In this document: positions 1,378 through 44,900 of the stretch, piece after piece
Numbering within the stretch: position 1 is the first letter of the stretch
How the letters are laid out: every line of letters begins with the position of its first letter
NCBI GenBank assembly: GCA_018985235.1
Contig: JADGIG010000013.1
Span: forward strand, 1 to 51,535
Length of the DNA stretch: 51,535 bases
Source: Sanchytrium tribonematis
Lineage: Eukaryota
Direction: 5' to 3'
The notes under the pieces: generated by a model
What the model saw: the letters and a program-made list of their open reading frames with translations, nothing else
Database searches by the model: none
Told to the model about the DNA's origin: nothing
Made by a program: the position numbers and the translations under genes

Positions 1378-2825
1378 TTATTGAGTTGGAGCAGGTGGAA
1401 GTCTTTCATTCATTTGATCACGTATTTTAGCATCTTCAAAAGAATTTATGGCAGTCTTGAGTCCTTCAGTTCCACTGGAAAGTAAACCAGCTGGAAGTTG
1501 ATTTTTTCCAGTAAGCACTTTCAATTCATGAATTGCTTCAGATTCTTGACGTAATAAATTAAACATCTTTGACATTTTTCCAACTGCCAAAATCTTGTTT
1601 TTAATGATTTGTTTTCTTTCAGGATCCATACCAGTAGCTAAATTAGTAAAAAACTACGAGACTCGACCTCAAGCTCTTCTTTAGAGCATGTGTTTAAAAC
1701 CGCAACAAGCATATCCATCAGCTTCTCGCCTACAAAAGGCAATGACCAAGTAAAAACGTCCATGAAATTCGGTAACCAATATGGATGTGGAGAGCAGTTG
1801 AATTGCCTTATATTCATGAGATTATTCTCGTACTTCAATATAGCAGCTTTGTTGTTGTATACATCTAAGTAGTTTGGAGCACTAAATATAGTTATTAAAC
1901 TAGGAAAGCCAGTGCTTTTACTTCTCTTATACATGCGATATCCTGCGTCTTGAGCCTCGTGTGCCCTAATTAAACTCAATAGCTTATTTTTTTCTAAAAA
2001 GTGTTGGACTGCATTAAAAGTGTAAAAAAATGAGCAGCCTCTGACATGATTATGCAAAAATAACTCCTGAGAAGTTTCGCTTCCATAATCCTCGCAAGGA
2101 TCACTCCAAAGAACATCACACATTAAACCATGGGTTGGTGGTTCTCGAAATCTATTAATGTTCTTTAAATCTTCCAAAGTATGTAGTTCTGGGGAAATTC
2201 CTCCGTGGATACAGAGAAATTGCTTGTTGACCAACGCTGCTAACGGTAAAGCCTGGAAAGACTCCACACAAGCATCATAAACTTTTTCACTATATTTGTG
2301 CACACACTCTAATTTGAATGTAAAATATTCAGTAAGATGCCTACATTCGTGATTCCCACGTAACAAAAACATGGAATTTGGGTATGATAATTTCAAAGCA
2401 AACAAATAAAGCAAACACTCTATACTAAAATATCCTCTGTCGACATAATCACCTAAAAATAAATACTGAGTCGACGCAGGACTTCCACCAACCTCAAACA
2501 ATTTTATCAAATCGTAATACTGTCCATGGATATCACCACAAACTGTAACAGGCGATGCCACATTAACTATGTTTCCTTCTTTTGCTAAAGCGGCAGTGGC
2601 ATGTTTTACAATATAAATAGCTTGTTCTTTAGATAGCCGACCCTCATGAAAAAAGAAATCTTTCAAGAAATCCAAGGATATGTTCCATGTTTTTTCAATG
2701 ATGACATTGCCATCAGCATCAGTTATTTTGTCTGGAAACCCCAATTGTTCATTTGTGGGTGTGAAAAGATAAGGCGCTTCTACGGTTTCTACGATCCTTT
2801 TTTGGTAATTTGTGACTTCGCTCAT
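1378..2825 (-). CDS. CNA1: Calcineurin catalytic subunit A (PP2B), 2 exons, 475 aa
   Basis: GDIHG, GDYVDRG, RGNHE, SAPNYLD motifs; CaM-binding and autoinhibitory segments in exon 2; joined in frame by 20-nt intron 1638-1657. Confidence 0.97.
1638..1657 (-). other. 20-nt spliceosomal intron GTAGTTTTTTACTAATTTAG
   Basis: Removal gives ..[14 protein letters not shown], fusing the two calcineurin ORFs. Confidence 0.9.
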
Positions 2826-2890
2826 CCCAAAAATGTTTCAAAAATGAATTTTCAGTATAGCTAAAAGCAAAAAGCAACAAATTTATTTGG

Positions 2891-3184
2891 CTAAAATAAT
2901 CCCAATGACAACAATATTAGCGCAATACCAGCCAAAGTTTTTGTATTAAGTAAATTTCGATTAAAATAAGAGGAGAGTAAAACGTTGAACACTAATGACA
3001 GGCCTTGAATAAAAGGAATTGCATAAGATAATTGCATATCTTTGAGGGAGTAATAATAATATAATGAACCAGATAAATTAAAAGCCATCCAGAGTGCGAA
3101 TGTCAATCCACTACTAAATTTCATAAAGGGTTGAGTGGCTCCCCAACAAAATGCAACAATTATGCAATTGAAAACTTGACTCAT
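2891..3184 (-). CDS. TMEM234-like small membrane protein (EamA/DMT superfamily)
   Basis: VAFCWGATQPFMK, NLSGS.YY, LSYAIP motifs; hydrophobic. Confidence 0.75.
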   Translation of the reverse strand: MSQVFNCIIVAFCWGATQPFMKFSSGLTFALWMAFNLSGSLYYYYSLKDMQLSYAIPFIQGLSLVFNVLLSSYFNRNLLNTKTLAGIALILLSLGLF

Positions 3185-3204
3185 TTTTATTCACTAAATT
3201 TGTT

Positions 3205-5563
3205 TTACAAAGGAGAAGTTGCGATTGAATGGCGTGAGAAAAACTCTGTAATTTTAGAGAATGGGTCATCTGCGTTGTCAATTTCTTTGAAAAAGAATGT
3301 CTCATTTTCTTCTTCAATTGGCGATTCATACTCTTCTATACACCGCGGACAAGATTCAGAATTGCCTAAACAACTTTGATGATATGAATGATGGCAGTAA
3401 AAATGAACAATTGGTAAATTTAGCTGTTGTTGGCATGCAGAGCAAATGGTTTCTTGAAACAAAATTGGCTCATTTTTAATTTTTTTAATCTCATTTGTCA
3501 TTTGATCGATATCCTGCTGAAATTTTTGAGACATATCAATAAATTCCTGGATTTTGTCTGCTTCATTCTGAAATTGTCGTATTAAGTAGCCTTTGATCAG
3601 CTCCATTGTATTTTCCTCGTCGGTTGCCAAAATTTTTACAACTTCGACACAATTTAGTATATTGCTTCCTTCGATTATATTTAATGCTTGGTCTAAATGG
3701 CGCTTGTCTTTTCTGGCTGTTTTGGCGAAATATTTTAAAACTTCAACCCAGATGTCCTTGTCGTATTGACAATGTTCAATTGCGCTTGAAAGTACCTTGT
3801 CGTGCTTCTCTAAATCCATATATACATAAATAATTTCCTTCTGCATATTCATCCTTTCTAATAATACTAGCTTTCCATCGTTGTAGTTATGTGTATGACA
3901 AAGTAGTAAAACCTCTGTCTCATCGACTAATGCATTGGGATCTTGAAGAATTTCTAAAAGCTGATGTCTTAAGCTCTTGTCCTGCAAAGAAACTTCAAAT
4001 AAACTTGTCCAGATTTTTTTGCTCGAAGTTTTCAACTCTTTCGCAGCAAACATTAAAAATTTTAAAAAATATTTCTTTTCCTTTCGATAGTAAGGAACAA
4101 ATTGATCTGGTGGTATATTAAATTCAGTGCATAATTTCATAAACAAATCCGTAGTGTGATTTGGTACGGCATCAACCAAAGCCCTTCCGTGAAAAGAAAT
4201 TAATTTAAGACATTCTGTAAATTCGAGATTTGAAATGTATTCTAAAGCGGTTGTATGATCACTAAGATCTTCAATCAAAATTTTGACGTACTGAGAATGG
4301 TTCCTAAATTTTGAACAAATATTTAAAGCCTGCTTATAGTGCCCTGCTTCTCTTGTCACCTTTATTGCAACATCTGGATCAAAATTTGTTATTTCAGAAT
4401 TCTACATCAATAAATAATACCTTGAGGAATGTCTCCAATCTAGAAATGCCGTTGATTTTGGAGTAGCAATTAAGTAGCAATGTAGTATGATCTGGGGTTG
4501 CTACTTTCCTAGTGTGAAGCATTTCAAGATAATCCATTAGTTGTTCCATCCGCTGAGCATTTACATATTTCAATATAACTACACTGGGTTCCAAGTAACC
4601 AATAGTCTCAATAAAATATTGCATCGCTTTGTCTTTATCGTCATGCAAATATGTGTTGTTGGCGAATAATTTATAAACTTCAGCACAAAGTTCCTTTTTG
4701 TCAAATAGCCTCAAGTTTGCCAAATCTTCTTTTTGGTGAATATCATATACGGACTGAGATACTTCAAATGTAGCAAAGCTGCTATCTGGCTCTTCTTCTA
4801 TGAGTAGGATGCCTAATTCAAACATTTCTTTCTTTATTGCTTGCTGGACCTTGGAGTAAATGTCTTTCTCTACAAGTTCAATACAATTATCACTCACTAA
4901 ATATTGAGTATTTAAAATGTAGTTGCAAATCCACTTCCCACTTAAGGGGCCACTGTATGCATTATATCGATTCTTAAGGTCGTAGACATATCCTATTTTC
5001 CCACTAGTATACAAAAAATTACCACTACAAATCATGGAAGACTTTTCTCCCACTAAAGGAATTAGGTGCGATTTACCTAATACTGTGAACAGAGAAACAC
5101 CTTGCGCCGACCCGACGCAAATGAAATTTTTATACACACAACTTACCCCTGTTATTGGTGCCAAAATATGCATTTGATCATTTATATTGCCCGTCAAATT
5201 AATAAGAGTGGCTGGACCTTTCAAAATATTTAGTTTTGTCACAACAATCAAATGCTCTTCCAAAATATGAACATCTGCAATTGATTCTTGTACAGCGACA
5301 TACTTAATTGTCCCTGATTTTAAATCAATTATTCCAATAACTTTGTCATCTACAACTGGCAGAAATATTAATTTATCTTTGTATGGAAAATAAGTGTTGG
5401 CAAATACGAAGTCGTTGTTGATTGTAATTCTGTATTCCTCTGATGTAAATGAAACCCAAACAACTACACTCAGGGATTTAAAAAGCTGTTTGTTGATATA
5501 TTCATTTTTGTAAAGCTCTCTAAGAATTAAATCTTCCACAATTCTTTTTGTAAAACATTGCAT
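3205..5563 (-). CDS. VPS11: Vps11/Pep5 (HOPS/CORVET subunit), 2 exons, ~779 aa
   Basis: AMQYFIETIGYLEPSVVI, HTTLLLNCYSK, C-terminal RING (CSAC..HFYCHHSYHQSC..CPRC); 19-nt intron 4402-4420. Confidence 0.92.
4402..4420 (-). other. 19-nt intron GTATTATTTATTGATGTAG
   Basis: Removal gives ETFLK-NSEITNFDPDVAIKVTREAG. Confidence 0.9.
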
Positions 5564-5649
5564 CAAAAAATTAACTATTCACAAAAAGATTGCCTCAAAA
5601 GTTAAGCAACATTGTTGTAAAACAGACCCCGCAAATTAATTTACAAAAA

Positions 5650-6871
5650 TCAGTGTTTATTTTCATAATGTTCGGGGTATTCTTTTAAAATTCTATGCAA
5701 TTCTGTTTCTTGTTCTTCAATTATGTGAGTTTTTGTATCAAAAACGTCTGTAAACATGTCTTTGATATCAGGCTTAGGAATTTTCTCAGCCGCCTGGAAA
5801 GCTTTAAGAATCGATTTTCGAACCGCGGATTTTGTTTCTTTTTCCAAATCCGCATTCCACAATTTGGAATTTTCTAAGTAGAGTCTTAATCTTGTTAACG
5901 GATTGTCATTTTTAACCCAGGATTCTAATTCGCTTGATTTTCTGTATGCAGATGAATCGTCAGATGTAGAATGATGACCAACTCTATAAGTCATTGCTAT
6001 ATAAGTAAACAAAACCTTCGATTAATACTGGCCTGTTTTGTTCTAAACAAATTTTTCTTGCTTCTGCAGTTACCGCAAACACTCCAAAAAAATCATTTCC
6101 GTCTACTCGAAAAGTGGGGATATCGTAGCCGAACCCTCTACTTGCAATTCCGTCGCCGCGATACTGGTCGGATACTGGAGTGGAAATCGCATATCCATTA
6201 TTTCTGCAAAAAAAGATGACAGGACAGTCTCTGGTAGACGCCATATTTAATGCAGCATGAAAATCTCCCTCACTGGCCGCACCATCACCAAAATAGGCAA
6301 TCGATATTGCCCCTTTGTTCTCACGCTTTAATGCATAAGCTGCACCTGCAGCTTGCGGTATTTGGGTTCCTAAAGGAGAAGAAATGGTGTGGAAATTTAA
6401 TTTTGCACTTCCATAATGAACTGGCATTTGGCGGCCTTTACCGTAATCTTTTGCGTTTGAAAAACACTGATTCATAAATTCGTCTAACGTGAAACCTCTT
6501 GCCATTAAAACACCTTGTTCTCTGTATTGCGCATACACAACATCTTGGTCTTTAAGCGCAAAAGCACTTCCAGTATTGCAAGCTTCTTCCCCATAACTTG
6601 TCATGTAAAACGATATACGACCTTGTCTTTGGGCATCGTATAAAATGGAATCCATTGTGTTAATTGTCAGCATCTGTTTGTAGGCCTTTAAAACCACACT
6701 TGGATCTTTAATCAATGGCTGGATCAAATCATCGTATTTTTTTGTGGTTAATTTACCATGGGAATTTAATAACTGGAATGTTGGTATAACTGATGATTGT
6801 TGCACAATTTTTAATTCGCTTGTAAGTTTGCTATTTACGGCACCTGGAAACCTGATGAAACGCTTGAACAT
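5650..6871 (-). CDS. BCKDHA: Branched-chain 2-oxoacid dehydrogenase E1 alpha, 2 exons, 400 aa
   Basis: QRQGRISFYMT, GDGAASEGDFHA, YRVGHHSTSDDS; 19-nt intron 5997-6015. Confidence 0.95.
5997..6015 (-). other. 19-nt intron GTTTTGTTTACTTATATAG
   Basis: Removal restores conserved PVLIE-A-MTYRVGHH. Confidence 0.93.
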
Positions 6872-8003: not shown

Positions 8004-8128
8004 TGGGGTTTCAAAATGTTTCAATTTTTATCTGATACTATATCAGGTATATTTACTCATTTTAAAAGATTTTTCACAACGATGTTCGAGGACCCACCAA
8101 GAAGAATTGCTCAAGTGAGTCAAGATTC

Positions 8129-11100
8129 CTACGCTTTCCCCACTGGATGCTCTTCTTGTGGATAAGTACAAATTATCGAATAAACGCATGAACTTATAAC
8201 TTTGCGCGTGGCTACATCTTCAATCTGGCATTTTAATCTGTAACTTCCTGGACAAAGAAGAGAAAATTGAATTAACGTGCTCCATGTTAATTCCTCTGAG
8301 AACATCAATCTGTGTAGCTTTCCTTGTACTAATACTTGATCATTGTCACATATATAAAGTGCGCTGTTTTCGCAGTCTTGGTATATCAAAAATTTAAATT
8401 TAAGATATTTGATAGCAGAAAAAGAATTTACCAAAAATTTCAAAGTTTGCCACTTTTGTGCATTTACCTCAAATGCTGAAAGTACCTCTTCTTCATTATA
8501 AAATAATGAAATTTTCATCATACTTTTCAAAATGCCCTGGATTAAAGTTTGATTGAGCTCCAAGTCGTGCAAAAAATACCTGCCTCTTCTTTTGCTAGAT
8601 GGAATTTCGTAATTGATTTCAATAAGATCAAGTAATTTCATTTTATAAAAGTAAGACTCACGGGCATTTACATTCGAAAAATCATAGTCATCTTTTTCGC
8701 TGACCTGCAGATACGTAAATTTTGGCAAATTAGGTAATGGCGAAAATAAATCCAATCTAGGTAATATAAGTTCAATACGTTCACATCCACCCGGAGTTAT
8801 TACCACTTTTTCCTGCTCTGGTTTGATAAAATATAAATGCACAGATTCGTGCCAATGGTTTTCCAAATCAATCGCGAGCAAAAAGTGGTCTTTCGACTGG
8901 TCTTCTCGGACATCCAGTGTCCTTATTTTAAGTATTGAGATTAAGGTCAATTCAAGTGGTATCTGTAATTTCCGAAATCTAAGTTGCTGCTCCTCATTGA
9001 GATATCCATATTCAATTGTCAAAATAATTGAAGAACTAAGTTAAATTTAATTACCAAAACGGTTTGCCTAAAATTTGAATAACCATGTTTTCTGTTGCCT
9101 GTGGAGAGATTTCCTTCACGGAATCCACACAATCAATTAATGAAGGATTATTACGGTGAAAAAAATCGAAGTAACATAGTTTTTCCAAATCGAGTGTTCT
9201 TACACTCTCATTAAATGCTTCGGTATTTATAATTCCAATATGATTGACTTTCACCGTCGAAGAATTTAAGACTGGAATTACGTACTTGTATTTTTCACCA
9301 TTAAAAAGCATAATTCGTTGACTCAATGCACCAAAGGGTAATTTTAAAAATGGCACTGATGGCACAACATTTATAACGATATCCTTAGGAGCTATAGGAT
9401 ACACAACATCTTTAAATATCCTTTCTGCTTCCAAAAGTCCAAACCTTTTGATTTTTGGCGGAGAATGGGAAAGTACAATTGGCCTAATAATTAATCTATC
9501 TGTCAAGCCCAATTCTGGACAATTGACTCGACAGCCATTAATTGTGATCATTCCTGGATCTTTTGGAATTAATCTCAGATGCAAAAGATTTATAGTCTTT
9601 GCGTTGATATCAATATTTTTAGGCTGACATTCTGCTTTTCCATCGACATCCAGTTTTAAATTAGCTAAGCTTAAAGGGTGCATAAACGGATTGCATAGTG
9701 CAATTTCGGCAGTCACCACATCATCAACGCTAGATTCCAATTTGTCTGTGAGACTGGTTTTACGTTGATCAAATGGATTATAAATAAACGGATCAGTTTT
9801 ACTGACTCTTCGGGATTCAGAAATATCCTCGATTTCTTTGGTGTGTATATCAAATTCATTTTGAGGTTTGATAATCTTCATTGATATAATTAAAGGATTG
9901 ACCGTATCGTCAAGCTCCTTCCCAGCACGAAAATGTTGCATTAAAATTTTTTGATCGTCTTTGTTCATATAATGATATAGTCTAGATAAAGCAATATATG
10001 CTAAATAAGCCCTAGTTTCATGCAAATCGTGTCTTTCACTTAAAAGTAACGATTGAGTTATAAAGTCTATCATCAAGTAAAGCCATCCGCAACAATATAC
10101 TACTTTTGGTCTAAAACCCAAAGTTTCGAGACTTGAGACAATCATTGGAGTTATGCTTTTTAAATTAAAGACAGGTTTAAGTGCTTTCATTGCTTTAATG
10201 GAATAGTAGGTAAATTGTGACTTTCTTCGAGGGTATTTTAAAATATCATAAAATGAAGAGAGTCTTATGTAATAGCGGGCCTTGGTTAACTCATCTAAAT
10301 TGTACAAATAGTAGTTTGTTTTTATAATTAAATTGTCGCATTCTAGTCTGTTCAAAAAAGTTCCAGTGTAATATTCCATATTTAAGGACACTATTTGGAA
10401 ACTTACTTCAGCGCACAATAAATTACATTGCTGCTGTTCAAAAATTGGTAAGACCTGTGTGTTTAATTTCAAAATGTAGTCTTTAACGTGATTTAAAATT
10501 TCAAAACTTTCATCTTTATCAAGCTTGGATCTGCTTTCTCGAAAAGTTGTTGGTTCTATCATATTAACAGTCTTGATGAGTAGTTCCGAAATACATAATG
10601 ACCATAGGGCGCCACCATACCAGATTGGATCTACCCCTCTAAGTAAGTCTGTGGCACTCTTTAATTTGCTAATAGAGTCCTGATATTCTCCTTTAAGCAT
10701 TAAGTAATCCCCGATCAGCTTAAATGTTCTGCCTGAAGATTTGAGTTGCATCAGTCTAGCTTCGTCGGTCTGGTTTGAAAACAAATCTTTAAGCGTAGGC
10801 GAGCTAACCGGAGACAAATTTGTTTCCTCGAATGCTTTTAAAACTGAAGGTGTTGGGGGATAAGCACTAGATTCTATTAGTCGAATTTTTTCGTCTATTT
10901 TTTTTAATATTTTTGCCAAAGTATCGCAAAGCAACTGATACACATAGAAATTTACATTTCCCACTTTTGGTACTGAAACCACACTTGCAATTTCATCTGA
11001 TTCAGAGTTAAATAGCAAGCATTTCGGAAGTGCATTTGGATGCTTTTCTTTTGAAAGGTCGAAAAACAATTGCACATGTTTATCTATATGATGATTGTGG

Positions 11101-11985: not shown

Positions 11986-13765
11986 ATGACGAACAAAGAC
12001 GATCGCGAGACCCTCCAATTTATACAAGATCTCAAAATTCAAGTGCAAGATCTTTCTAAAAACAACTCCTGGCTAAGAAATCGCCTCAATTATTATAGAA
12101 AACAAAACGAAAACTTAACTAAGAATTCTGGTTATCAACATATACAGCCTAAAGTAGATTCAAATTTGAAAAGGAAAAAAGAATACGTATCTCTAATACA
12201 ATCAATGCATCCCAATGCCGTAGATATTCCAGTAGACAACAATGCTATTTCGCAAACTGACCTTCCTCTTGAAAATCCCATCAAAGAAAGCGCAGAGGTT
12301 TCAGCGGCTATGGTTTTGAAAGAAACTTTAAGCAATCAATTACATATTATCGAGGATTATGGTCATCAACTTGCTATTCTGCAATCTGAAAATGCCGTTT
12401 TAAAAGAAAGGCAGAAACAGGACGAGGAACTTATTGGGAAGTTGAAAGAAAAGGTAAAAGAGAGAAAGAATAACAAAAAAAGTAGTCAAAATATTGAAGC
12501 TTTCCAAAACAAAGATTTTAACGAGTTGGCAGAAAAAGATAAATGCATCGCAGACTTACGATCACAAATTCTGGAATTGGAAAAACAAAACAAAATTACT
12601 AAATCACAATCGAAAGAGATAGTTTCAAGTCTTAACGAGAAGTCTGGTGAAGTGGAGCTGCATAAAAATGAAGCCGAAGAATACTTAAAATTATTATCTG
12701 TACAAAAGCCATTTATGTCGCTTGTGCGAAAACACCAAGTTGAAAATGTTGAACAATTGAGCGACATTCTGAATCTTTTCTCATATTTAAGATCTAAGAA
12801 TCTTGATAAATTGGTATTTGAAAATCCCAAAAAATATATTGTTGAGCAAAATAAGGAAGAAATGGACACTATTCGCGAGTCTCTTATAGAAGAAAAATCT
12901 TATTCCGAAAAACTTCAGCTCGAATTAGAGGGATTAAACGCTCGCTATGAGGTCTTATCTAGAAAGTTAGTTTCCTCTGAACGAGAAATAGATCTTGGTC
13001 CTCATGGAAATAAAGTTTCAAATAATTTGATTATCAAGCTGGATAAGTTAATTGGGCTAGATTTAAGCGAAGTGGTACTTGCAATTTGTATACCCCAAGT
13101 TGAGCCGATATTAATAGATAAGCAAAGCACCTATGAAATCCCGATTTCTAATTTAAGGCAATTTTTTATCCAAGCTTTTGTAAAACCAATTGAGCTGCAC
13201 CTTTATAAAAGACGAAGCAACAAGTTAGAAAATACTTTGATTACGTAAATATCGTTAATTTAGCCCAATATTTATTGAAAAATGGATCTCGGAATGTTTA
13301 TCTACGGCTGATTATTTTGAAATAAAAGTCGTAGAGGATTGCTATTCCGTGGAATTAGCATTTAAGCTTGAGAATAATGCAGATTATCTAATAAGAACTC
13401 TATTGGCCGATTTAGCGTCCATCAAACCTCAAAGTGACAAGTTGTATCAAATAGAGGTGATTCCTGTCTATAATTGTGAAGAAATTAAGTTGATATTCGC
13501 AAATTCATTTGAAGTAACACTTGACAGATCGATCGACAGTGCTTCTCACAGCGTTACAATTCCAGGAAGTATTTTTACACTAATCAGTAGAGAAATTTTT
13601 GAAATTCATTGTAAAGCTGATTTACTGACTACAAATGTAACATTGTCAAATATCATTCATGAAGATTTGATTTTGAAGAGCTATAAAATACGATGTAGTC
13701 CTATAACCAAGATCTTGGTAGAGTCAAGGGAAAATATGGATTCTTCACAAAATCTCATTCAGTAA
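11986..13765 (+). CDS. Coiled-coil/C2 protein, probable shortened RPGRIP1L (fantom/MKS5) ciliary transition-zone protein, 2 exons, 586 aa
   Basis: IQDLKIQVQDLSKNNSWLRNRL..GYQHIQPKVDS resembles the RPGRIP1L N-terminal coil; long coiled coil then beta-rich region; 19-nt intron 13245-13263. Confidence 0.55.
13245..13263 (+). other. 19-nt intron GTAAATATCGTTAATTTAG
   Basis: Removal joins ORF 11986 to the frame of ORF 13349 (ENTLI-T-PIFIEKW). Confidence 0.88.
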
Positions 13766-15142: not shown

Positions 15143-16167
15143 ATGTTGAGAAAAAGAAGCAGAGCCGCTCATACTTTTGATGACTCAAAATTCAAAAAGT
15201 TCGACGCTTTCTCAAAGCCTGCTGAAGAGGTCAAAAGAAGCACTCAGACCACAAGGTCAGTGTCCTGGATGGTTAGTAGTTTTCTAATTTTGGTTGTTTT
15301 TGCAGAAATATATCACTACTTGAATCCTATTCAAATACAAGACTTCACAGTCGACACAGATATTAGCACTCGAAATGATCTCAAGATAAATTTGGATATA
15401 TTCCTAGCAATGCCTTGTGACGATCTATCAATTGACATTTTAGATGAAAGTGACACCCTTTACAGAGCCAATGGGGCATTCCACAAGAAGTCAGCAGAAT
15501 CTTTAATCGATTATGATCAGAGGTCTGAAAAACAAGAATATAAGCCAGGACAGGCTATCAAGCAAGCTTATAAGCAGCAAAAAAGAAGTGTCCAAGGTGA
15601 AAAAGTTAGTGGTTGTCAAGTATACGGCACTATCGAACTACCCAAATTGCACGGAAATTTGCACGTAACTCCTTCTGGGCATCTACATTCAGGTAAGCAT
15701 GCGAATCATGACACTATGAATCTTACACATAAAATAACTAATTTAAATTTTGGAGAAAATTATCCAGGACTTGTGAATCCACTTAATGATGTCAAAAAAG
15801 TTGCTACAGGACATTTTTGGAATTACAGATATTATATACACATTGTTCCGACCACATATATAAGTAATTTATTTTTAATTAAGATTCTTGGGGCACTCAG
15901 TTGAGAACGTTCCAATATTCAGTTTCTGAGTATGAACTTGAGATTTCGGATGAAAATCGTCGCGCACCTGGTATATTTTTCAAGTACAACATCGCTGAAT
16001 TTCACAATACAATCCGAGATCATTCAAAAGGGTTTGGTGGATTTATGCTCCGTCTTTGCGCAATCATTGGTGGTGTGTTTTCATCCACAAAAATGGTGAT
16101 GGCTGTGGCAAGTATGATAACAACGGTCAAGTCTTCACATTCAGGCTCTTCTGGAAAACTGGACTAA
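15143..16167 (+). CDS. ERV41: ER-derived vesicle protein Erv41/ERGIC2 family, 2 exons
   Basis: [54 protein letters not shown]; 20-nt intron 15864-15883; alternative start 15104. Confidence 0.85.
15864..15883 (+). other. 20-nt intron GTAATTTATTTTTAATTAAG (AAG acceptor)
   Basis: Removal gives [20 protein letters not shown]. Confidence 0.85.
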
Positions 16168-16208: not shown

Positions 16209-17766
16209 ATGGAAGACGCACCTGATAGTGATTTGAAGAAAAAAATCTTGCAACAATACGAAGATCAAAGCGAAGAGGAAATCGAAGAGGATGAGGTAGA
16301 TGAGCAAGTTAAAAAAGTAAAATTTAATTTGCCGGATAAGGAGCACAATGTTAATAATATTGCTTCTGCAATTCATTCAGCTTCTAAAGGTCTGTCTGAT
16401 CAAACAGAAATATCACAATTAGATAATTCAAAAATATTCACCGATACTCCTGAGGTGATTTCGAGGCAAGCAACCGTCAATATTGGTACTATTGGGCATG
16501 TGGCCCACGGTAAAAGTACTGTAGTGAAAGCAATATCTGGAGTGAAAACTGTTCGATTTAAAAATGAGATGGAGAGAAATATTACCATCAAACTAGGATA
16601 CGCAAATGCCAAGATATATAGATGTCCTAATTGCCCTGAACCAGATTGTTATCAGAGCTATAGCTCTTCTACTGAAGATCAACCTCCATGTAAACATTGT
16701 GATGAACTTTTAAAGCTTGAAAAGCACATAAGTTTTGTTGACTGTCCGGGTCACGATATCTTAATGGCAACAATGTAAAAAATTTTAATTTAGGTTGAAT
16801 GGAGCGGCAGTCATGGACGCAGCATTTCTTTTAATTGCCGCTAATGAAAAATGTCCCCAGCCTCAAACTTCAGAGCATTTGGCGGCTGTCGAAATAATGA
16901 AATTACAAAATATTATTATATTACAAAACAAAGTGGATCTTGTCAAAGAAGAAGATGTCAAATCACAATATAACGACATTAAGGAATTTGTCAAAGGTAC
17001 TTGTGCAAATGGCTCACCAGTTATCCCAATTTCTGCTCAATTGAAATATAATGTAGATGCAGTTAATGAATGCATTCTGAAGTATGTTCCGATGCCTAAA
17101 AGAGATTTGGTGTCGCCTGCTAAAATGATTGTCATCCGAAGTTTCGACGTAAACAAACCTGGAACCGATGTAGAAAATGTTGTTGGTGGAATTGCTGGAG
17201 GAAGCATACTGTGCGGCATACTTAGAATTGGAGACGAGATTGAAGTCTTACCAGGACGTCAATGGAAAGATGAACAAGGAAATACACAATGTACGCCTAT
17301 CAAATCCAAAATTGTCAGTCTTTTTGCTGAAAGCAATTCTTTGCAATTGGCAGTTCCTGGAGGTTTGATTGGAGTGGGTACAAAAATAGACCCTTCGCTG
17401 TGTAGAGCAGATAGGCTTATCGGAAATGTTCTGGGCCACGTTGGTCATCTTCCAAAAGTTTATTTAGAGATTGAAATACAATTCTTTCTGCTAAGGCGTT
17501 TATTAGGAGTACAAAATGTGGACGGAAACCAAACCAAAGTACAGAAACTAGTAAAAAAAGAACTTTTAATGGTAAATATTGGATCTACCAGCACTGGGGG
17601 CAAAGTAACAAGTATTAAAGACGATATGGCAAAAATGGCTTTGACTCAACCTGTTTGCGCAGAAATCGGTGAACGCATAGCTCTCAGCAGAAAAATAGAC
17701 AAACATTGGAGATTAATTGGTTGGGCTACCATACTTAATGGTCAAATACTTGAACCGAAGCAATAA
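16209..17766 (+). CDS. GCD11: Translation initiation factor eIF2 gamma, 2 exons, 512 aa
   Basis: [31 protein letters not shown]; 19-nt intron 16775-16793. Confidence 0.98.
16775..16793 (+). other. 19-nt intron GTAAAAAATTTTAATTTAG
   Basis: Removal restores invariant [15 protein letters not shown] exactly. Confidence 0.96.
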
Positions 17767-18194: not shown

Positions 18195-21100
18195 TTAATG
18201 AGAATCGTATAGCAACTCCCTGGTTTTTTTGCTTAAAAATGGAAATAAATTTCTTTCACCAACCAAACTTGCCAAAAAATTGCAGCCACCCAACAAAAGC
18301 AATAACAGCTTGAATAGAAACGGAGTGTATTCAAGTTCCATAAATGTTGTAATTGATGGAATTATTCCCATTGCCAAAATAGTTGTGCATATGACTAAAA
18401 TCAAAAATGTTATAATAAAATGCGTATTTCTGCTCAAAGGAGCTCTGTATGGTGGTCCGATTGAATACACATATGCCAAAATAATATACTGGAAAGAGCT
18501 AACTATGAATAAAACAGTGTTTTCATAGCACTTGAATCTTTCGCTTTCGACATCTGTATCAGGAGGAGTGTAGAATTTTTGGTGCTGCACCAGCACGAAG
18601 ACAATAATTAAAAAGCAAAGTTGCACCAAAATCTGTCCGAATAAAGATGAGAGGACTTTGCCACTTAACAAATTTGCAGTCGGTTTTTTTGGATGTAAAT
18701 GTTTATATGGCCCAGAGTGCGCCATCGTTATTGCAAGTGGTAATATGAGGATCAAGTCAACGTATAGAAATTGGTAGTCGCCCAGATTACTGCCAACATG
18801 ATATAGCATTGTAACAGATAAAAATTGAATTAAGGAGTACATGGCCATATATTTAAAGCAACTAAAGCTAGTGACTAAGGCTGCCCGACCTTCTCTCATT
18901 AAGCTGATAACACAGTCTATTTCAAAATTTTTTGAAGTAAAAGGAGCCGCAATACTTGCCTCAGCCTCAGACAAACTTAATCCTACGTCGCTTGCTTTCA
19001 AGGCACCACAATCATTTGCTCCATCTCCAACAAAGCCAACCGTATTATCAAACTTTTGAAGCCTTTCTACTAAATCTTGCTTTTGATCAGGACTCATCCG
19101 TGCAAAAATTTTACATTTTGATAGAAACATTTCATGTAAATGCACTGGCTGATTTTCTAATATATGCTCAAAACAATCACCATCCATGGCAAAACAGTAT
19201 TGAACGTCTTTTAGCAATTGCCTAGTTTTAAGTAAATGAAGTTGTTGAAGCTTCAAATTCCTCATAAACTGAGCAGAAAAATGAAATGTATTAGATCCAA
19301 GAATGTGAGATAAATCTTCGGTGGCTTCAATTTCTATTTCGTAGTCAGAATTGAGCTTTATAATAGGAACATCTAATGAACGCCATTGATACTCTCCATT
19401 TAATAAGAATGGAACAAATAATAAAAAGTTCGACCCAGACCCAAGACCTTCAATCTTTTCTTCCAAAATTCCCAAGGAATTTAATAAATTACTTGGAGAT
19501 GGAGAGGGATTGACTGTTGGATAGCTTGTGTCACTTGATGAAGAAGACATGAAACTCTGTTGTCTTGTTTTCATCGATTGTCTCTTTAAATTTAAGCCAA
19601 AAGAGCCTGATGGGAGTATTTCATCGTTCATATTTACATAGCCCTCTTCTTGTGGAAAAAGGTTATCATACACAAGAACATCTTTGATCGCAACGCTTTC
19701 CCTTCTAATCTTGCTTACCACTTCAGGACTAGGTGGAAGTAAGCCACACTCTCTTCCCACGCTTATCGCTGTTAGTATATTGTCGCCAGTACACATGCCC
19801 ATATGTATTCTTGCTGCATTCAAGGTTTCAATCGCCCTTGTAGTACCTTTTTTGAGTCTATTTTCGAAAATTAAAAATCCTGTGAAAACTAAATTTGTCT
19901 CGAGTTCCTGCCTCGTCAAATTAAAATCGCTACCCAAAACTTTTCGAATACCGCATGCTATTACTCTAAAACCATTATGGCTGCATTCGCTTAACAATTC
20001 GTTGAAGTCTGAAGGAACTATGTGAAAATTTAATACGACTATTGGAAATACTAATTTGCTTAATAACTTCTGGAGCTCCTTTTGTGCAAATATAAAAACT
20101 TTCGCCAATTTTTACAATGACGCTCATTCGTCTCAATGAAGCGTCAAAGTCGAAAACTTGATGTATTACTATTTCCTTACTATCTAACAATACGCAATCA
20201 TTTTCCAATTTAGCGCCTGTAAAGTTATACATTTCGACTTCCAGAGGGTCTCCTAACAAATGAGATTGAACGGATTTCAACGAATGACAGGAGGCCATAC
20301 ACAATAGCAAAGGATTTATACGTTCCTCTTGTAAACTTTTCAAAGTGGAAAGCCAGCCGTCGAGATATATTGTAGTCAACTGGTGGTTTAGAAGCTCGCT
20401 CTTTTCCTCTGCGACAATTGTATCAAATCGCGTTTGAATTACTCCATTTTTCTCTTTTGTAATACTTTCTTGTGCGCCTAGAAGCTTAAGACCTTCAACC
20501 GTCAACGTACCAGTTTTATCAAACAATACAATATTTAGCTGTCCGGCGACATTGATTCGATTAGGCGAAATGCAAAAAATGTTTTTTTTTCTAAGACGCG
20601 CTAGAGCAAATGAGATACCGATGGACATTGTAGCTGGTAAAGCTGGAGGAACTGTGATAGTGACTAAGTCAAGGCCTCGTAAAAATATTACGAACCATGT
20701 TTCTCCTCGACGAATAAAACTAATTGTAGTATAAATGAAGCCCAAAAAAGCCACGCATGCCATAATGCCGATAAATTTAAAAGAATCCTCGTAAAATTTG
20801 AACTTGTGAGGTTTTGGATGCAACATGGATCGTACAAGAATGCCTTTGGTAGTCTGAAAGCCAGTTCTAATGGCCATAGCCAATGGTTCTGAATATTTCT
20901 CTCCCGTTTTCAATCCTTGTCCTTGAATAATCTTTGTGCCGGAGAATAAACAGTGCTTCAAATATTTAGTCTCTATTGTACCTTTGTCGATTTTAATACT
21001 CGTCAAGAAGTTACGAAGTGCGGCGACGTTGTTTGTTTTGCCCAAAATACCAACTTTAGATACAGGTATGCTTTCACCGGTTAGTGCTGACTCGTTGATA

Positions 21101-24821: not shown

Positions 24822-25181
24822 ATGAGTGTCTTGATTTTCGATTCCAAGGATAGGCCAATATTTGAGGCAACCAACGTTTCCTCCACTCTAGATTATTTCT
24901 ACATTTACGGACTTTTAGATGTGTTAGACGACCTTATCATAAATAATCCACAAACGATTTATAAAAACTTCACAAATTATGCAAACACGTCTTTGCAATG
25001 CAGCGCTTTAGTTACATCGCTTTTCAGAGTAATTATTATAAGTAATTCAGATGTAGCAAAATGTTTTACAGATATACACGAAATTCTTATTAGAATGTCG
25101 ATGAATGTTTTTTACACCACACAAATGAGCGAGGTTATTCATGACAGAATGATGTCTATCGTCAAAAAGCACAATATATAA
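24822..25181 (+). CDS. Sedlin family TRAPP subunit (Trs20/TRAPPC2-like)
   Basis: D.PIFE, F.IYG.LDVLDD, FTDIHE..IRMSMNVFY. Confidence 0.7.
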   Translation: MSVLIFDSKDRPIFEATNVSSTLDYFYIYGLLDVLDDLIINNPQTIYKNFTNYANTSLQCSALVTSLFRVIIISNSDVAKCFTDIHEILIRMSMNVFYTTQMSEVIHDRMMSIVKKHNI

Positions 25182-25874: not shown

Positions 25875-26654
25875 ATGACAATTTGGATCGAGCCTCTGAG
25901 CGGTTCAATCGGTGCACTAAGTTCAACTTTAATTCTGCACCCGCTTGATACTCTCAAAGTAATGTTGCAGTCTAATAACCTGAACCTGAGATCGACTTTT
26001 TTAGAAATACAAAAAGGAAAAAATTGGTATTCTGGAGTCGCGGCTAATTTGTCTGGTAATATGATAGCTTGGTCATCTTATTTTTTTATTTACAGTGAGT
26101 TCAAGAAGTTTGTCGATCCTTTCTTTGCAGGAACAGCAGCAGGTGCTTGTACGTTGTTGCTCAGTAATCCGTTTTTTGTCGCCAAAACTCGTATGATCAC
26201 AGAGCCCAAACATTACGTCTCACTGGTGAATTGTATTGTCACTATTTTTAAGCTAGAAGGTTTGGGTGGTTTGTACTCTGGCTTGGGTATTGGGATGATT
26301 GGAACTCTTCATGGCGGAATTCAATTTTACTCTTATGAGAAAATTAAAACTGCATTCAATTTAGATGATTCTAGATTTAATACATTAAATTATTTAATGG
26401 CTAGTGGCAGTAGCAAAATAATTGCATCTTTCGTGACATATCCATATCAAGTCATTCGTACCAAATTACAACAGCGAAATAATGAGAAAAACATAAGACA
26501 GATAGTGAATCACATTTACAAAAATAGCGGATTTGTTGGATTTTATCGTGGTTTAATCCCTGGTATAGCTAGAGTTCTCCCCGCCTCCATGATTACGTTG
26601 ACTGCATATGAAGCATCGAAAAGGGGACTAAATAAGCTAGTTGAATCAGAGTGA
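25875..26654 (+). CDS. FLX1: Mitochondrial carrier, FAD/folate (Flx1/SLC25A32-like)
   Basis: HPLDTLK, NPFFVAKTRM, YPYQVIRTKLQ, HGGIQFYSYE. Confidence 0.8.
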   Translation: MTIWIEPLSGSIGALSSTLILHPLDTLKVMLQSNNLNLRSTFLEIQKGKNWYSGVAANLSGNMIAWSSYFFIYSEFKKFVDPFFAGTAAGACTLLLSNPFFVAKTRMITEPKHYVSLVNCIVTIFKLEGLGGLYSGLGIGMIGTLHGGIQFYSYEKIKTAFNLDDSRFNTLNYLMASGSSKIIASFVTYPYQVIRTKLQQRNNEKNIRQIVNHIYKNSGFVGFYRGLIPGIARVLPASMITLTAYEASKRGLNKLVESE

Positions 26655-29606: not shown

Positions 29607-31152
29607 TTAATGGTCTAAAATTCGAAGATTGCCACTCACAACTTTATCTTCCAAGATGGATCCACTGGGGATATCGATTCTTTGACCCTGATTTGCAACA
29701 ATGATAACTGTACCACCAAGAACCACATTGGAGCCAAAATATACATCGCCGACAACAGTCAAATGGTCAAGATCTAATATTTTCGGAGGATTTTTAAATC
29801 GGTTGAGATACTCATTGACTTTCTTAAAATGCTCCGACAATTTTATGATTGGAATTGTACCAAAAAGTCGTTTCGGCGACAAAGTTAGTTGACCATGATT
29901 TAGTTGATACAAATCGGAAGTAACAAGAAACAAATCACCAGTTGATTTTACAGGTAAAAATCTAGACCTGGGAACATTAACACCATGAGCTCCCTCAAAG
30001 TGTTTAATCGCAGCACCTACTGCAGTCTCTAATTGAATGACGGCTTCATCGTTATACGACTTTTGGTTGATGATGATTTCCATATCAAACTCGTTGTTTT
30101 GAACTAGACGATTAATAGCCTTTAAGTTCATCCACAAATTATTGGTGTTGAAAATTTTAAACTTTTTAATGCTCTTGAAATCGTCAACGTGTTTCCCTGG
30201 GACTTGTGCAATCTCCAGAAGCCGAACATGCCCGTCATAATCTATTAAAGTCCCTCCCTTGACATCTGCTTTAGTTTTGTCTGTAACTTCCATGCAAAAT
30301 TCAGTCTTAGATTCGACAACATGTTTCAAGATTTCTATATTAAATAAAATTACTTTCGTCAACTGTCGCACCTAGATTGTCAATGTTGCTCACAAAAATA
30401 TATTCCTTTCCATCGTCTAAAAGTTGTTGCAGAATGCCAGAATTTGCAAGAGATTGATACAAATCTCCATGTCCAGGAGGATAAAAGCACCCTTTATCGT
30501 CGTCATTTCTTTCAGGACAGATGCTTACAGAATCCTTGTAAAATCTTGGGTACCTAGACTGGTTAAATGTCAGAATCTTGACATTTTTGTCAGTATATCT
30601 TCTAATGACCTTTTTTGTCTCTTCGTCGGTGTTAAAACTATTCATTAAAATAAGAGGGACATTAATCTTGTATTCATCATTTAAATACTCAATCTGTCTC
30701 ACCGTTAGGTCAAGAAATGTGCTACCATCTCTAACTTCAATGGCAGATTTTGGTCCAACACAACCCATAGAGGTTCCTAAACCACCATTCAATTTGACAA
30801 CTGCCAGCTTATTCAAATAGGCTGTAATAGATTCTTGGGGTTCCGATAATTTACTATACGGTACAATTTGATCCTCTGCAGGCGAATTGATTTTCTCCCA
30901 TTTTATAGTTTCACCTTTGGCTTTCTCCACTAAATATCTATTAAATAGCATGTAAAAATCATTCATCTCCTTTTTAATATGATCTTTCTTTTCTGCTGGT
31001 GCTGTCTCAACTAGCCGGTTCAATTCAAGGCGAATGTTTTTTGATGTTGTACGAGAACTCGTTTCTTCAAAACCTTGCATAGATTTGCTTCTGCTTCTAT
31101 CTAAATGATGCATTCGATGAGTTTCTGTTGGACTTAGAACACTTCCCGACAT
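29607..31152 (-). CDS. UGP1: UTP-glucose-1-phosphate uridylyltransferase, 2 exons, 508 aa
   Basis: [37 protein letters not shown]; 19-nt intron 30335-30353. Confidence 0.97.
30335..30353 (-). other. 19-nt intron GTAATTTTATTTAATATAG
   Basis: Removal gives [13 protein letters not shown]. Confidence 0.93.
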
Positions 31153-34259: not shown

Positions 34260-35388
34260 TCAGTCCAAGTTATAGTAAATTCCTTCTGGGTCAAGATATA
34301 GTAAGTCATCGTTGGTTGATCTAGGAACCGAACTAACTTGATTTTGCCTTGCAAGGCTTTTGATGTAACCATTGATTTCTTCCGGTTTAATAAAACGGTT
34401 TTGGGAAAGCATTACAGCCGCAACTCCGGCCTAAATTATTTAGAAATACCACAAATGGTGAAGCCATACTAGTTCCACTTTTAAAGACGTTCTTGGTGGT
34501 TGTTCCTGGACCAAGAGAGGCAATTTGCTCTCCAGGTGCTAAAATGTCTAAGCACATTCCATAATTGCTAAATCTACTAAATGTTCGTGATTGCGATACA
34601 CTTCCCACAGTGATTATCTTATCGGCACTAGCAGGCGTGTATTGACAGCTATCAGCTGCTGAGTTACCAGCAGCCGCAACAATTGTTAAGCCTTTTGTCA
34701 CTAGATCATTGAGAACAGTATTAATAGCAACATTTTTTGCTCCAGACAGCGACATGTTGACAACAGCAGGATTGCATTTTCCTTTTGAAGTGAGGTAGAC
34801 CCACTGCAAGGCATCCAAAACACAAGACCACCTACTATTTCCCGTACGGGACAATGCCTTGACAGCTATAATATTTGCCTTTTTAGCAACACCGTAGGTC
34901 TTGCTCGCAACTATGCCAGCCACATGAGTGCCATGCCCATTTAAATCGTCATTCGCCTTGTCTGCGGAATCGTATGAAAACATATTCAATCCGAAAGTCG
35001 CCCTTCCCTCCAATTCTGTATTTTGAATACTGACACCAGTATCTATGATATAAACATCAACGCCTGCACCAGCTTGCGGAGGATATTTAAATGTGTCACT
35101 ATTGGAAATCTGCATCAATGGCCACCCTGCACTTGTTTGTTTTGCATAGTTAGCAATTGTTACCTCCTCGTCCTTGAAGTGATCGTATTGATTGAACATG
35201 TGTAAATTTTCATCAGACACAACTCCTATTCGCAAATCGTCGAATGAAACAACTTTTTCTAATCCGAAAGTAGAAATTTCTGATTTAGGAAGGATTACTA
35301 AATTATTGACTGGCCCAGTTAAACTACAGACGTAGGTTGAAGCATCTAATTTTAATTGCTGGCAAAGAAGTATTTGAAGAAGCAACAT
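34260..35388 (-). CDS. Secreted subtilisin (S8A, proteinase K-like), 2 exons, 369 aa
   Basis: IDTG, NGHGTHVAG, AAGN, SGTSMASP; 19-nt intron 34431-34449; true C-terminus ..GIYYNLD* not in ORF track. Confidence 0.92.
34431..34449 (-). other. 19-nt intron GTATTTCTAAATAATTTAG
   Basis: Removal restores GTSMASPFV-AGVAA. Confidence 0.93.
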
Positions 35389-35432: not shown

Positions 35433-36168
35433 CTAGACAATTTTATCTAGCTCGGCTTGATATAATATGGCACGCTTTGCTAATAAATTGCAATCAACAT
35501 CTAATTTTTCTTCTTCTTGATTAAACAGAATCCAACCATTCTCGATTTTCCAACCCATAGATTTTACCAATTCAACAACATGATCCGTACTCTTACAGTA
35601 AAGCATGTGTTCAGCTGATTGTACGCTCAAATGAGGATACGTAACGGACGCCATTTTTAAAATTCTTTTTCTAAATAAATAGGAATTACTGTATGGTATC
35701 CAAAATCAATTTTAATAAAATTTTGTAATGTGGACTTGGTCCATTTGAAAGAGCGTGTAATTGAGAAAAGGAGCCCTGTTCAATCGAGAAGTGAACTTGC
35801 ATACAATAGTCAATATAAATATTATCAATAACGTCTTTTGGTGGGATAGTCTCAATCATTGAGTAGTATTCAGAAGTTTGTTTGTTTGCTAGTAGAAATA
35901 ACAAATACAAACCAATAAAGAAATACTTATTAGGTGTAGAATGATGCGAATAGAACGGGATTAAAATACTTAGAATAGTAGACAAGGTTGTCAAATTTGG
36001 ATTTGGGTGTTCCAACACGCCTTCTACTAATTTTTCGTAAAGAACCGCAACGCTCAGATTTTTTGAGTCCGGAACTAACATTGAAGACTTTGCGCATTCT
36101 GTCATAATCTCACTGACAGTATTGTCATTCCAATTGGCAACTTTTTTAACAAGGATATCAACGGACAT
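35433..36168 (-). CDS. RPN12: 26S proteasome lid subunit Rpn12, 2 exons, 238 aa
   Basis: IGLYLLFLLA, NIYI, EQGSF, LILDTI, YQAELDKIV; 19-nt intron 35671-35689. Confidence 0.85.
35671..35689 (-). other. 19-nt intron GTAATTCCTATTTATTTAG
   Basis: Removal gives LDTI-Q-KRILKMASVTY. Confidence 0.9.
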
Positions 36169-39477: not shown

Positions 39478-39582
39478 TAAAATTAATCGAAAAAGCTCCA
39501 AATTCGTTAAGCCTCTCTCAACAACTTAGATTTGCCGTGAAAGATATGTGAATTATGCAATATAAAATCCAATTCCCAATGA

Positions 39583-41879: not shown

Positions 41880-41917
41880 TCTCCGAGCGTTTTTCCTACT
41901 TGAAATATATAGCAAAA

Positions 41918-41932
41918 TTCAGCCAATCAAAA
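41918..41932 (+). promoter_or_regulatory. CCAAT box TTCAGCCAATCAAAA
   Basis: Identical to 27830-27844. Confidence 0.5.
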
Positions 41933-41991
41933 GATTGAAGCCGCTTTTAATTTGCTTGTATTTCTCAGTATGACGATGGTTACTACCTAAC

Positions 41992-44900
41992 TTAATTTAT
42001 TTTTAAAATAATTGTTTTAACTTCAAATGGATGCAATTTTAATTGCAAATCGGTGACTTCCAATAGATCTTCCAAAACATTGGAGAGGTACGCCTTTTCA
42101 ATTTTGATATTAGGAACAATCTTGACTGTCCCATGTCCCCCGCAGCTCTCGAATAGTCTCAAAATGATGTGTTTCTGGTTTCTTTCTCCTATTTTGATTG
42201 TATCTAAAATGACATTTTGAGATGGATTTTCAAGGCTAATAATAGGATTGATGTTACTTTTCCAACTTCCCGGTAAAACAGTACAGGGATGATTAAATTC
42301 GTACGCCTTTTTGATCACCTGAGCGTTGGAAGAATCTTGCAAATGAGGATAAAAGGCGTATTTGAAATCGTGAATGCACATGTCACAATTTGCATCTGGC
42401 CCTTTAGGAGATCGTAACAAACTGATTGCTAGGTCTTTAAATAGACAAGAATAGCCGTACTTGCAATCGGAAAACAAGCTCACTCCATAATCAAATTCCG
42501 AGATGTCTACAAATTTGTGCCCTAAGCATTCAAATTTTGCAACATCCCAAGACGTATTTCTGTGTGTCGGACGTTGGACATAGCCATGTTGAATGTCATA
42601 AGTCGCATTGTCAGCGTTTATCTCGACTGGAAAATGAACTTTTAACAATTTGTGGCTCTCATTCCAATCCACTTGAGTCTGGAAATCAATCAATTTTGTA
42701 TCTTCTTGGATAGTAATCAATTGTGTAAGCGCACTCTTATCGCTGAGCTTAACTACCAATTCAAAGGAAGTGTGCGTATCTTTTTGCGATTTCAACGAGA
42801 ATTTATAATTTTCAGATTTAGGCTTCCACCACTTTTCGAGGGCCGTAACTTCTACATCCCAGGCATCTAAATTAAAATATATTACCCCAGAAAATCGGAA
42901 TATCTTCGTATATTCTAAACTCATTTCCAACTTTACCTGACTCGATAACTTCGCGATTTGCTTCCTTATCGAAAAATGAAACAATTTCACCTTGTGAATT
43001 AAATTTTAGAGAATATAAGCTAGTTTCTACGGATGTAATATTGGCACATTGTACTTTAATTTTATCATTGGCTGATTTGTATTGACCCACCACCAAGGCG
43101 CTATTAGCGGAAATACTTTCGACAACTACTCGTTCTTTTTTATCTGGTAGCTCGATAAGTTGATCCACGGTCCAGCAGTGTGGATTGTAAATGCTATGGT
43201 GCTGATCTTTTATCAATAATACATCCTCAAGGTCGCTGATCAAGTTATCTAACTCCAAATCTGTCTCTTCGTATATCTTTCTGCTATCTTTGTAAACCAA
43301 TTCTATACTACTTCCTGGTAATACATCATGAAATTGATTAAGTAAAACATTTTTCCATAATTCCCTTAATTTTTCAGATGGATATACTTTGAAATTATTA
43401 ACGTGAGCAATCGTAGCTAGCTGTTCAACCATTTGAAGCTTAAATTCTAGCTTTCTATTCCATTTCTTGTTTCTTGCCTGAGATGTAAAGGTTCCTCTAT
43501 GAAGTTCAAAATAAAGTTCGCCTTTATAGACGCTCAAGTCATTTTTCACAGAATTTAAATGGTCATAAACCACAATGGGATCTTTGTACGTGACGCTTGG
43601 AATGCTGGGGCATTTTCTGGCTCTAGCAAGATTTTCCAAATGTTGCCTTGTTGGCCCACCACCACCATCACCGTCCCCGAATAATAATACGGATTTGTTC
43701 GTATATCTCAAATCTTTGTTATCTTTGATACTGGCAAGAACGTGATTAATTTGCCCGTCAGAGTTATACGTGGAGGAGGGACAGAAATGTGCAATAACCT
43801 CAGAGCTGTCAATTCCTCTCCATCTAAATGAATGGTGTGGAAAAGAATTGATGTTATTCCAAGAAAGTTTTTGAGTAAAAAAATAAGACATTCCTGCTGA
43901 TTTTAGGATCTGTGGCAATGCCCCACTGTAACCAAAAGTATCCGGTAGCCAAAATATTTTGGAACGAAATCCAAATTCGCTTTCAAAAAAAAGTTGACCG
44001 TACAGCATTTGCCTGCAAAAAGCCTCACCACTTGGCATGTTCCCATCCATTTCGACACATGACCCACCAATTGGAATAAACTGACCTTTCTTCACAAATT
44101 CTAAAATTTCATCCCAAACCTCTGGATATTCCTTTTTGACCCATTCCATTTGAATAGTTTGAGAGCAAACAAATTTAAACTCGGGATCTTCTTTCATAAA
44201 ATTGACTTGAGTTTTCCAAGATCTCATGCACTTCTGAACCGTTTGTTGATAACCCCACAGCCATGCTGTGTCAATATGGCAGTGACCGACAGCCACCACT
44301 TCATGTTGATATTCTAAATTATCTTGTCCCTTTAAGAATTTTTTCATCAAACTCTGAGCAGTTGCCCAAGTGGATTTATCTTCGGCATTGAAAATAGTAA
44401 CAATCTCGTGAGCAGTATTTAGAGCTCGATTTTTAATTTCGCCTTCAGTTAAATCGTTGTAACACATTTTTAAAAAACGCAAATCATTTTGAAGTTCATT
44501 AATAGTATTATTTACCTGTTTAATATCCAAGGCAGAAATGTAATACGTTCTGTTGTCATCTGATGGAGAAATATCCCCAGCAATCCCGTTTCCAAACATT
44601 CTATTGCAGGCAAATTCAATGTAAAACAATAAGTAATTACTTCCTGTTGATTGAATTAAATCATTCAATTTAAAATACTGTCGATTTTCCGAAACACATT
44701 GTAACGGAGCACCATTTTCACTGTAAATCATACCTTCACATCCACCGTCGACATGAAGATATATTGATGTTTCTTTTGTTATCCAATCTTTTGGTACACT
44801 TACTTTGACCTTTCCCCAACTAGTTGCCCAAGACTTTCCCAAAAATCCCCCATTGCCAGTCGGTTTAAAGTCAAGTTTGACGGCCTCTTGAAATTTGATC

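Follow-up and report, generated by a model that had tools for sequence, protein, structure and literature searches.

Twelve genes of Sanchytrium tribonematis, a sanchytrid fungus parasitic on algae, all located within a single 51-kb window (contig JADGIG010000013.1; the window designates the whole stretch of 51,535 nucleotides, nt, analysed here), are each interrupted by one GT..AG segment of 19 nt (10/12) or 20 nt (2/12). These segments are very probably genuine U2-type spliceosomal introns, lying near the smallest size that the spliceosome of this fungus can handle. The initial annotation of this DNA had described them as tiny, near-uniform introns of spliceosomal type in a fungal nuclear genome, and the evidence supports this view: its twelve coordinates and lengths are all correct, the GT..AG ends lie on the coding strand in every case (nine introns on the minus strand, and three, at 13245, 15864 and 16775, on the plus strand), and excision of each segment joins two open reading frames (ORFs) into a single open frame in all twelve genes, restoring the motifs MATMLNG, IEAMTYR, FWDAWD and SPFVAG as proposed. 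All three intron phases are represented. The introns, their genes and the evidence placing them are as follows:

1638..1657, minus strand: calcineurin A (coding sequence 2825-1378); 20 nt, phase 1; predicted branch A at 1643.
4402..4420, minus strand: Vps11/Pep5; 19 nt, phase 0; PF23356 positions 76 and 82, leading to 77|78 by extrapolation.
5997..6015, minus strand: BCKDHA (E1 alpha); 19 nt, phase 1; profile deletion test.
9036..9054, minus strand: TRAPPC9/Trs120; 19 nt, phase 2; PF08626 contiguous.
13245..13263, plus strand: 586-aa protein (coding sequence 11986-13765); 19 nt, phase 2; motif and frame join only.
15864..15883, plus strand: Erv46/ERGIC family; 20 nt, phase 1; PF07970 contiguous.
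16775..16793, plus strand: eIF2-gamma; 19 nt, phase 2; predicted branch A at 16788.
20018..20036, minus strand: P5B-type ATPase; 19 nt, phase 1; solved-chain alignment.
30335..30353, minus strand: UDP-glucose pyrophosphorylase (UGP1); 19 nt, phase 1; profile test and relatives.
34431..34449, minus strand: subtilisin-family protease; 19 nt, phase 0; exon ends abut on 1s2n.
35671..35689, minus strand: CSN8/PSMD8/eIF3K-family protein; 19 nt, phase 2; Pfam positions contiguous.
42867..42885, minus strand: Ams1 alpha-mannosidase; 19 nt, phase 1; 7vqo and orthologue P0389.

Besides their ends, the twelve segments share a composition and an internal signal. Their interior has a GC content of 7.7%, versus 35.1% for the window, and once aligned on their 3' ends all of them display a T at -8, an A at -6 and a pyrimidine (Y) at -5. 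This T-N-A-Y motif, with the A at -6 as in the branch geometry of the ciliate Stentor, had been overlooked in the initial annotation, and its presence at any common offset in all twelve introns was not reproduced in any of 200,000 shuffles of the interiors. The donor reads GTA in 11/12 introns, a T at -3 is equally frequent, and position +5 is occupied by T in 10/12 and by G in none of them. The tail located 3' of the putative branch A is fixed at 5 nt, and a 5' arm of 13-15 nt is obtained when relatives (19-21 nt) are taken into account. When a matrix trained on the twelve introns was used to score 7086 GY..AG candidates, these introns occupied ranks 1 to 10, 13 and 20.

A second line of evidence makes no use of splice signals: for 10 of the 12 introns, the excess length is fixed by homology alone. 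For UGP1 and BCKDHA, all frame-restoring deletions were scored against profiles of 60 homologues each; the best-scoring deletion length is 19 nt for both genes (among 1161 and 1400 deletions, respectively), the claimed intron being the best GY..AG deletion. Elsewhere, exon ends meet when placed on known structures: at human residues 145|146 of a solved chain for eIF2-gamma, at 226|227 of 1s2n for the subtilisin-family protease, and at 766|768 of 7vqo for Ams1, where they flank the split codon. For the P5B-type ATPase, residue 871 of the solved chain aligns at query position 145 of 150, and the next exon resumes from 878. Most breaks are flanked by the two halves of one Pfam family, and for Vps11, Trs120, Erv46 and the CSN8/PSMD8/eIF3K-family protein the family positions are contiguous when extrapolated across one to seven unaligned end residues. 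The length of the calcineurin intron is not fixed by distant homology because the intron falls within a variable loop, where a GT..AG alternative of 17 nt scores equally well against distant homologues. As for the 586-aa protein, no Pfam match was obtained for the whole protein and no usable ESM Atlas match for its second half; both the N-terminal coiled coil of this protein and the region further on may resemble the ciliary transition-zone protein RPGRIP1L.

Further support comes from related proteins. The calcineurin of the window is 88% identical to that of Amoeboradix gromovi and about 70% to those of other fungi, and its UGP1 is 80% identical to the best named match (A. gromovi), versus 53-66% elsewhere. 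In a BCKDHA tree of 36 rows hand-picked from 120 matches and cluster members, the window groups with A. gromovi and three ENA sequences in one long-stemmed clade (100/99), of which it is the first branch; deeper nodes, that is the place of sanchytrids among fungi, are unresolved in this tree, and this position is taken from the available text of PMC8371127. Judged from these identities and this branching order, the window is that of a sanchytrid lying outside the Amoeboradix group (the second genus described in these fungi is Sanchytrium), and its GC content agrees with the 34.6 and 36.3% given for sanchytrid genomes in the same source.

The public proteins of these relatives are raw ORFs running on into introns, and intron lengths were back-decoded from their peptides. 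Seven lengths could be deduced in this way (19 nt in five cases, 21 nt in two), besides three breaks without a length and one unexplained tail (P0139). By direct peptide comparison, three relatives have their calcineurin interrupted at the site used in the window: exactly seven extra residues (21 nt, which preserves the frame) are present in both A. gromovi P0004 and ENA P0124, and a frame shift compatible with 19 nt is seen in ENA P0125. The UGP1 of A. gromovi (P0140) and of ENA P0141 breaks at the same codon as in the window. ENA P0139 and P0381 are devoid of this intron and read GATVDEKIL, as does the spliced window, P0381 breaking further on with a tail compatible with 19 nt; two mutually exclusive intron positions are found in UGP1 among sanchytrid sequences. 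Ams1 P0389, 64% identical, is uninterrupted and reads IPIFWDAWD, the spliced junction of the window. In the read-through tails of three relatives, the codons force T at -8 and A at -6 if the ORF stop is the TAG acceptor.

Another example is BCKDHA, for which the best decoding in A. gromovi is a 19-nt intron located 13 nt upstream of the window site (score 111), whereas the break in the three ENA sequences falls 13 nt downstream of the window site. Two of these breaks fit 19 nt, the codons forcing T at -8 and A at -6 provided that the stop is TAG, with other lengths also compatible. Three positions spaced 13 nt apart (RP^V, IE^A and TYR^) are therefore occupied among the window, P0378, P0258, P0379 and P0380. 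The differing positions in BCKDHA and UGP1 suggest intron sliding or fast turnover. The 3' end of the BCKDHA intron of the window also resembles the 13 exon bases that follow, as a duplication would leave. Sanchytrid DNA was also sought in public contigs: the calcineurin junction pattern gave no match in viral and metagenome contigs, an eIF2-gamma scan of viral contigs yielded no usable sanchytrid DNA, three calcineurin loci in GTDB (at 33-78%) were not used, and a sanchytrid UGP1 alignment run against JGI metagenomes returned 598 pattern matches, none of which was confirmed.

The genomic context is compact: the window contains 40 gene models, about 93% of it is coding, and the intergenic gaps measure 41 nt at the median. 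Intron-bearing genes represent 12/40 models (30%), with one intron each, and none of the 40 requires a longer intron. The earlier statement that all frame-broken genes are repaired in this way is correct as far as genes split into two sizeable halves are concerned, and no additional convincing coding intron was found in the window. Candidates at 43714-43731 in Ams1 (no insertion relative to P0389) and at 25029-25050 in the sedlin gene (where the unspliced frame keeps matching Pfam) were rejected, as were several antisense motif matches. Two other segments lie outside coding frames: a thirteenth motif-matching 19-nt GT..AG segment at 8038-8056 (minus strand), upstream of the PNKP gene and just after ATG-A, whose splicing leaves the PNKP frame unjoined, may be an intron of a 5' untranslated region (UTR) or of an upstream ORF, or a chance match; and a 26-nt GT..AG segment with a branch-like motif at 45894-45919 (plus strand), abutting the ATG of a Brix gene, may be a leader intron or again due to chance. 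Within coding sequences, introns sit at 0.37-0.85 of the length (mean 0.65), a 3'-ward placement (p ~0.01 versus a uniform distribution that leaves 50 codons free at either end) which is the reverse of the 5' bias known in yeast, microsporidia and Stentor; the sample is small, and a detection bias is possible. Three adjacent gene pairs overlap by 1-11 bases (for example at junctions 13755-13765, 26646-26654 and 40719), and given these overlaps and the short median gap, UTRs must widely overlap neighbouring genes.

What spliceosome would process such introns? The protein complement was examined in the eggNOG table supplied with PMC8371127, using the A. gromovi sheet (its first 3736 rows at least, out of about 3757) together with the opening rows of the S. 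tribonematis sheet. The A. gromovi annotation covers approximately half of the proteins of this species and was built from split ORFs. It lists U1-70K, U1A/U2B'', Prp40, U2AF65, U2AF35, SF1 and SF3B1 on the U1/U2 side, Prp8, Prp16, Prp22, Prp17, Cwc25, Isy1 and Yju2 among core and catalytic factors, together with Dbr1, Y14, Mago and Upf1; U1-70K and Dbr1 also occur in these opening rows for S. tribonematis. SF1/BBP is divided between two ORFs of a single contig in the A. gromovi sheet (rows 1135-1136), a split of the kind expected from a tiny intron. The initial annotation had suggested altered U1/U2 recognition and had called for a survey of spliceosomal proteins for losses. An alteration through lost parts is not supported so far by this inventory, and the candidate losses concern the second step instead: Slu7 and Prp18 were not found in the A. 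gromovi sheet by name, KO or KOG, and neither were U1C, Smu1 and SF3B6. An Rfam search of the window gave no match. The lack of G at donor position +5 may nevertheless leave room for a changed pairing with U1 or U6.

Several considerations weigh against the interpretation presented here. Splicing itself, its efficiency and the branch site are inferred from sequence, and the splice signal is weak when taken by itself, since the lowest leave-one-out score is surpassed by 96 of the 7086 GY..AG candidates, a count in which the 12 introns are comprised. The introns of relatives are decoded from proteins, not from DNA: the tail of P0139 is unaccounted for, and the A. gromovi BCKDHA admits a second 19-nt solution, with a score of 105. 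Regarding Slu7 and Prp18, their absence comes from a half-coverage, split-ORF table, from which short or divergent proteins drop out easily; because such an absence is weak evidence, the loss of these factors is held at about even odds.

Among other explanations, the one that survives best would accept the introns as real, and consider them either as the lower end of a wider range of intron lengths or as poorly spliced relics comparable to those of microsporidia, without any special geometry. It draws on the fact that a single window and twelve introns were sampled, that relatives reach 21 nt, and that short Encephalitozoon introns, which count here as a further point against efficient splicing, are spliced at less than 20% on average. 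It is at odds with the exact sharing of one length by ten introns, with 40 gene models separated by a median of 41 nt and needing no longer intron, and with the location of introns in core genes (eIF2-gamma, UGP1) whose products would be truncated upon retention. We regard it as unlikely.

Removal without a spliceosome, through Ire1/HAC1- or tRNA-type cleavage and ligation, or through ribosomal bypassing or frameshifting, has even less to recommend it. Fungal HAC1 introns are about 20 nt long, close to the lengths observed here, and segments of 19 or 20 nt do shift the frame. Introns of the Ire1/HAC1 or tRNA type, however, carry conserved stem-loops at both junctions, and no stable or shared hairpin was detected in the junction regions that were folded (6 of the 12, all negative, z from -0.72 to +1.60); this type of removal is disfavoured because of the GT..AG ends and the unstructured junctions. 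The branch motif and the occurrence of three phases also argue against non-spliceosomal removal, the in-frame 21-nt version found in relatives requires no frameshift, and homologues show the residues to be absent rather than re-framed. Such mechanisms are very improbable. Assembly errors, artefacts of whole-genome amplification or pseudogenising insertions deserve hardly any credence: sanchytrid genomes do derive from amplified sporangia according to the available text of PMC8371127, but the splice and branch motif is common to all twelve segments and breaks fall at the same codon in independent EukProt and ENA records, which makes an artefact unlikely, and the inserts differ in sequence between genes, unlike adapters or repeats. 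U12-type (minor) introns, finally, are characterized by an extended RTATCCTT donor and a TCCTTAAC branch; assignment to this class was rejected, the donor consensus here being GTAWTW with variable positions +4 to +9.

If these segments are U2-type introns, how could they be spliced? The short GTAWT donor would be read by U1 and then by U6, and U2, together with SF1, would bulge the A at -6. Branching would then produce a lariat loop of 14-15 nt followed by 5 nt of tail (YNYAG), and joining would occur at the first AG encountered 3' of the branch, in an intron that would leave no room for a polypyrimidine tract. The initial annotation had postulated a spliceosome that measures a near-fixed intron; near-uniformity is indeed observed, while relatives span 19-21 nt and only the 5-nt tail is fixed, which is better accommodated by two arms that are both near their minimum. 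As the variation in length is confined to the part lying 5' of the branch A, a fixed tail and a minimal 5' arm explain the size band without a dedicated ruler: the 3' arm would be fixed, and the 5' arm (13-15 nt) would have been brought to a steric floor by deletion pressure in a genome that is 93% coding. This agrees with the model of deletion bias combined with a functional threshold outlined in the available part of PMC10245619. More speculatively, the loss or decay of Slu7 and Prp18, two factors that impose a minimal branch-to-AG distance in yeast, might have allowed the 5-nt tail, in convergence with Stentor. In yeast, Slu7 and Prp18 are dispensable at a short branch-to-AG distance, the natural minimum in budding yeast being 10 nt and the cryptic sites favoured without Prp18 lying at 7 nt (available text of PMC10711555); by the same convention, the distance here is 5 nt.

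Taken together, these elements suggest a joint reading, which we put forward tentatively and somewhat below an even bet: the whole of Sanchytriomycota may rely on introns of 19-21 nt, shorter than any others in fungi and animals and handled by a fairly complete spliceosome that would have dispensed with Slu7 and Prp18 in parallel with Stentor, the 5-nt tail representing a recurrent end point of intron shrinkage and the introns also relocating over short distances.

A literature search for sanchytrid introns, or for fungal introns this short, gave no report, subscription papers and two supplements of PMC8371127 lying outside its scope. In the available text of that genome paper (the two supplements excepted) the word "intron" is encountered nowhere except in the title of a cited work, which also applies to its sole mention in the available part of PMC10459994, and a 2026 study (PMC13644364) names ciliates, microsporidia and dicyemids as prior exceptions, sanchytrids not being among them. 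This is thus apparently the shortest intron class in opisthokonts and a new one for fungi, ultra-short uniform introns being already known elsewhere in eukaryotes. These introns would be the first below 22 nt that we found reported for fungi or animals, and they most likely have an independent origin; the sister phylum is intron-rich, with 19,375 introns in 10,031 genes in Blastocladiella. There are practical consequences as well. Sanchytrid proteins were predicted by TransDecoder on contigs (PMC8371127, available text), and the proteomes used in fungal phylogenomics and in EukProt were called without an intron model. The expectation that gene finders would split such genes is met by ORF callers: 16 of the 17 window fragments looked up in EukProt are present there as separate ORFs and, with P0123 added, all twelve genes stand in public protein sets as broken pieces. 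With 12 of 40 genes split, gene counts, the 1217 "sanchytrid-specific" orthogroups and absence calls made at the protein level need to be re-checked using gene models that allow for introns.

How do these introns compare with other minute introns? The initial annotation cited chlorarachniophyte nucleomorphs and heterotrich ciliates, a list that is valid but incomplete, since mikrocytids, microsporidia and myxobolids were omitted. Nucleomorph introns (18-21 nt) occupy the same size band, likewise in a compact genome, but belong to the relic nucleus of an endosymbiont with more than 800 introns in about 300 genes, whereas an ordinary nucleus with about 0.3 intron per gene is concerned here (PMC10245619, available part). 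According to the same source, Mikrocytos mackini and Paramikrocytos possess introns of 16-17 nt and resemble sanchytrids as parasites with few introns and one dominant length; their spliceosome comprises 17-19 proteins, with U2, U4 and U6 identified, whereas sanchytrids keep U1 proteins, and their introns are highly conserved and do not occur in metabolic genes, in contrast with the sanchytrid introns found in metabolic enzymes. In Encephalitozoon cuniculi, also a parasite and of fungal kin, GT-AG introns are tiny (22-76 nt); microsporidian introns are nevertheless longer, often 5'-biased in ribosomal protein genes, with strict motifs, poor splicing and a strongly reduced spliceosome (PMC3629993 and PMC6349667, available parts), and this lineage is separate from sanchytrids in the published phylogeny. 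Introns of myxobolids and Dicyema, with medians of 22-27 nt, likewise belong to opisthokont parasites that retain U2AF and whose donor has dwindled to GTa, but they are longer and more variable, and their putative branch As recede from the AG as length increases, while the A stays at -6 here (PMC13644364).

The closest parallel is provided by Stentor coeruleus, as described in the available part of PMC9505925. Its introns of 15-16 nt share with those of sanchytrids GU-AG ends, AU-richness, a branch A at -6 (the tenth base of 15-nt introns and the eleventh of 16-nt ones) and a 5-nt tail, the sanchytrid introns being 3-5 nt longer, entirely in the 5' arm. Intron-bearing genes mostly contain one intron in both cases, in a mid-to-3' location here and with a 5' bias in Stentor, and the T-N-A-Y motif is clearer here. 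U2AF, SF1 and Prp40 are present in Stentor, and Slu7 and Prp18 were not found there, as in the A. gromovi annotation. Stentor belongs to an unrelated supergroup and its introns are supported by RNA, whereas those of sanchytrids are known from their sequence; the convergence of both lineages on the same branch-to-AG distance, possibly accompanied by the same factor losses, offers a testable minimum geometry for the spliceosome.

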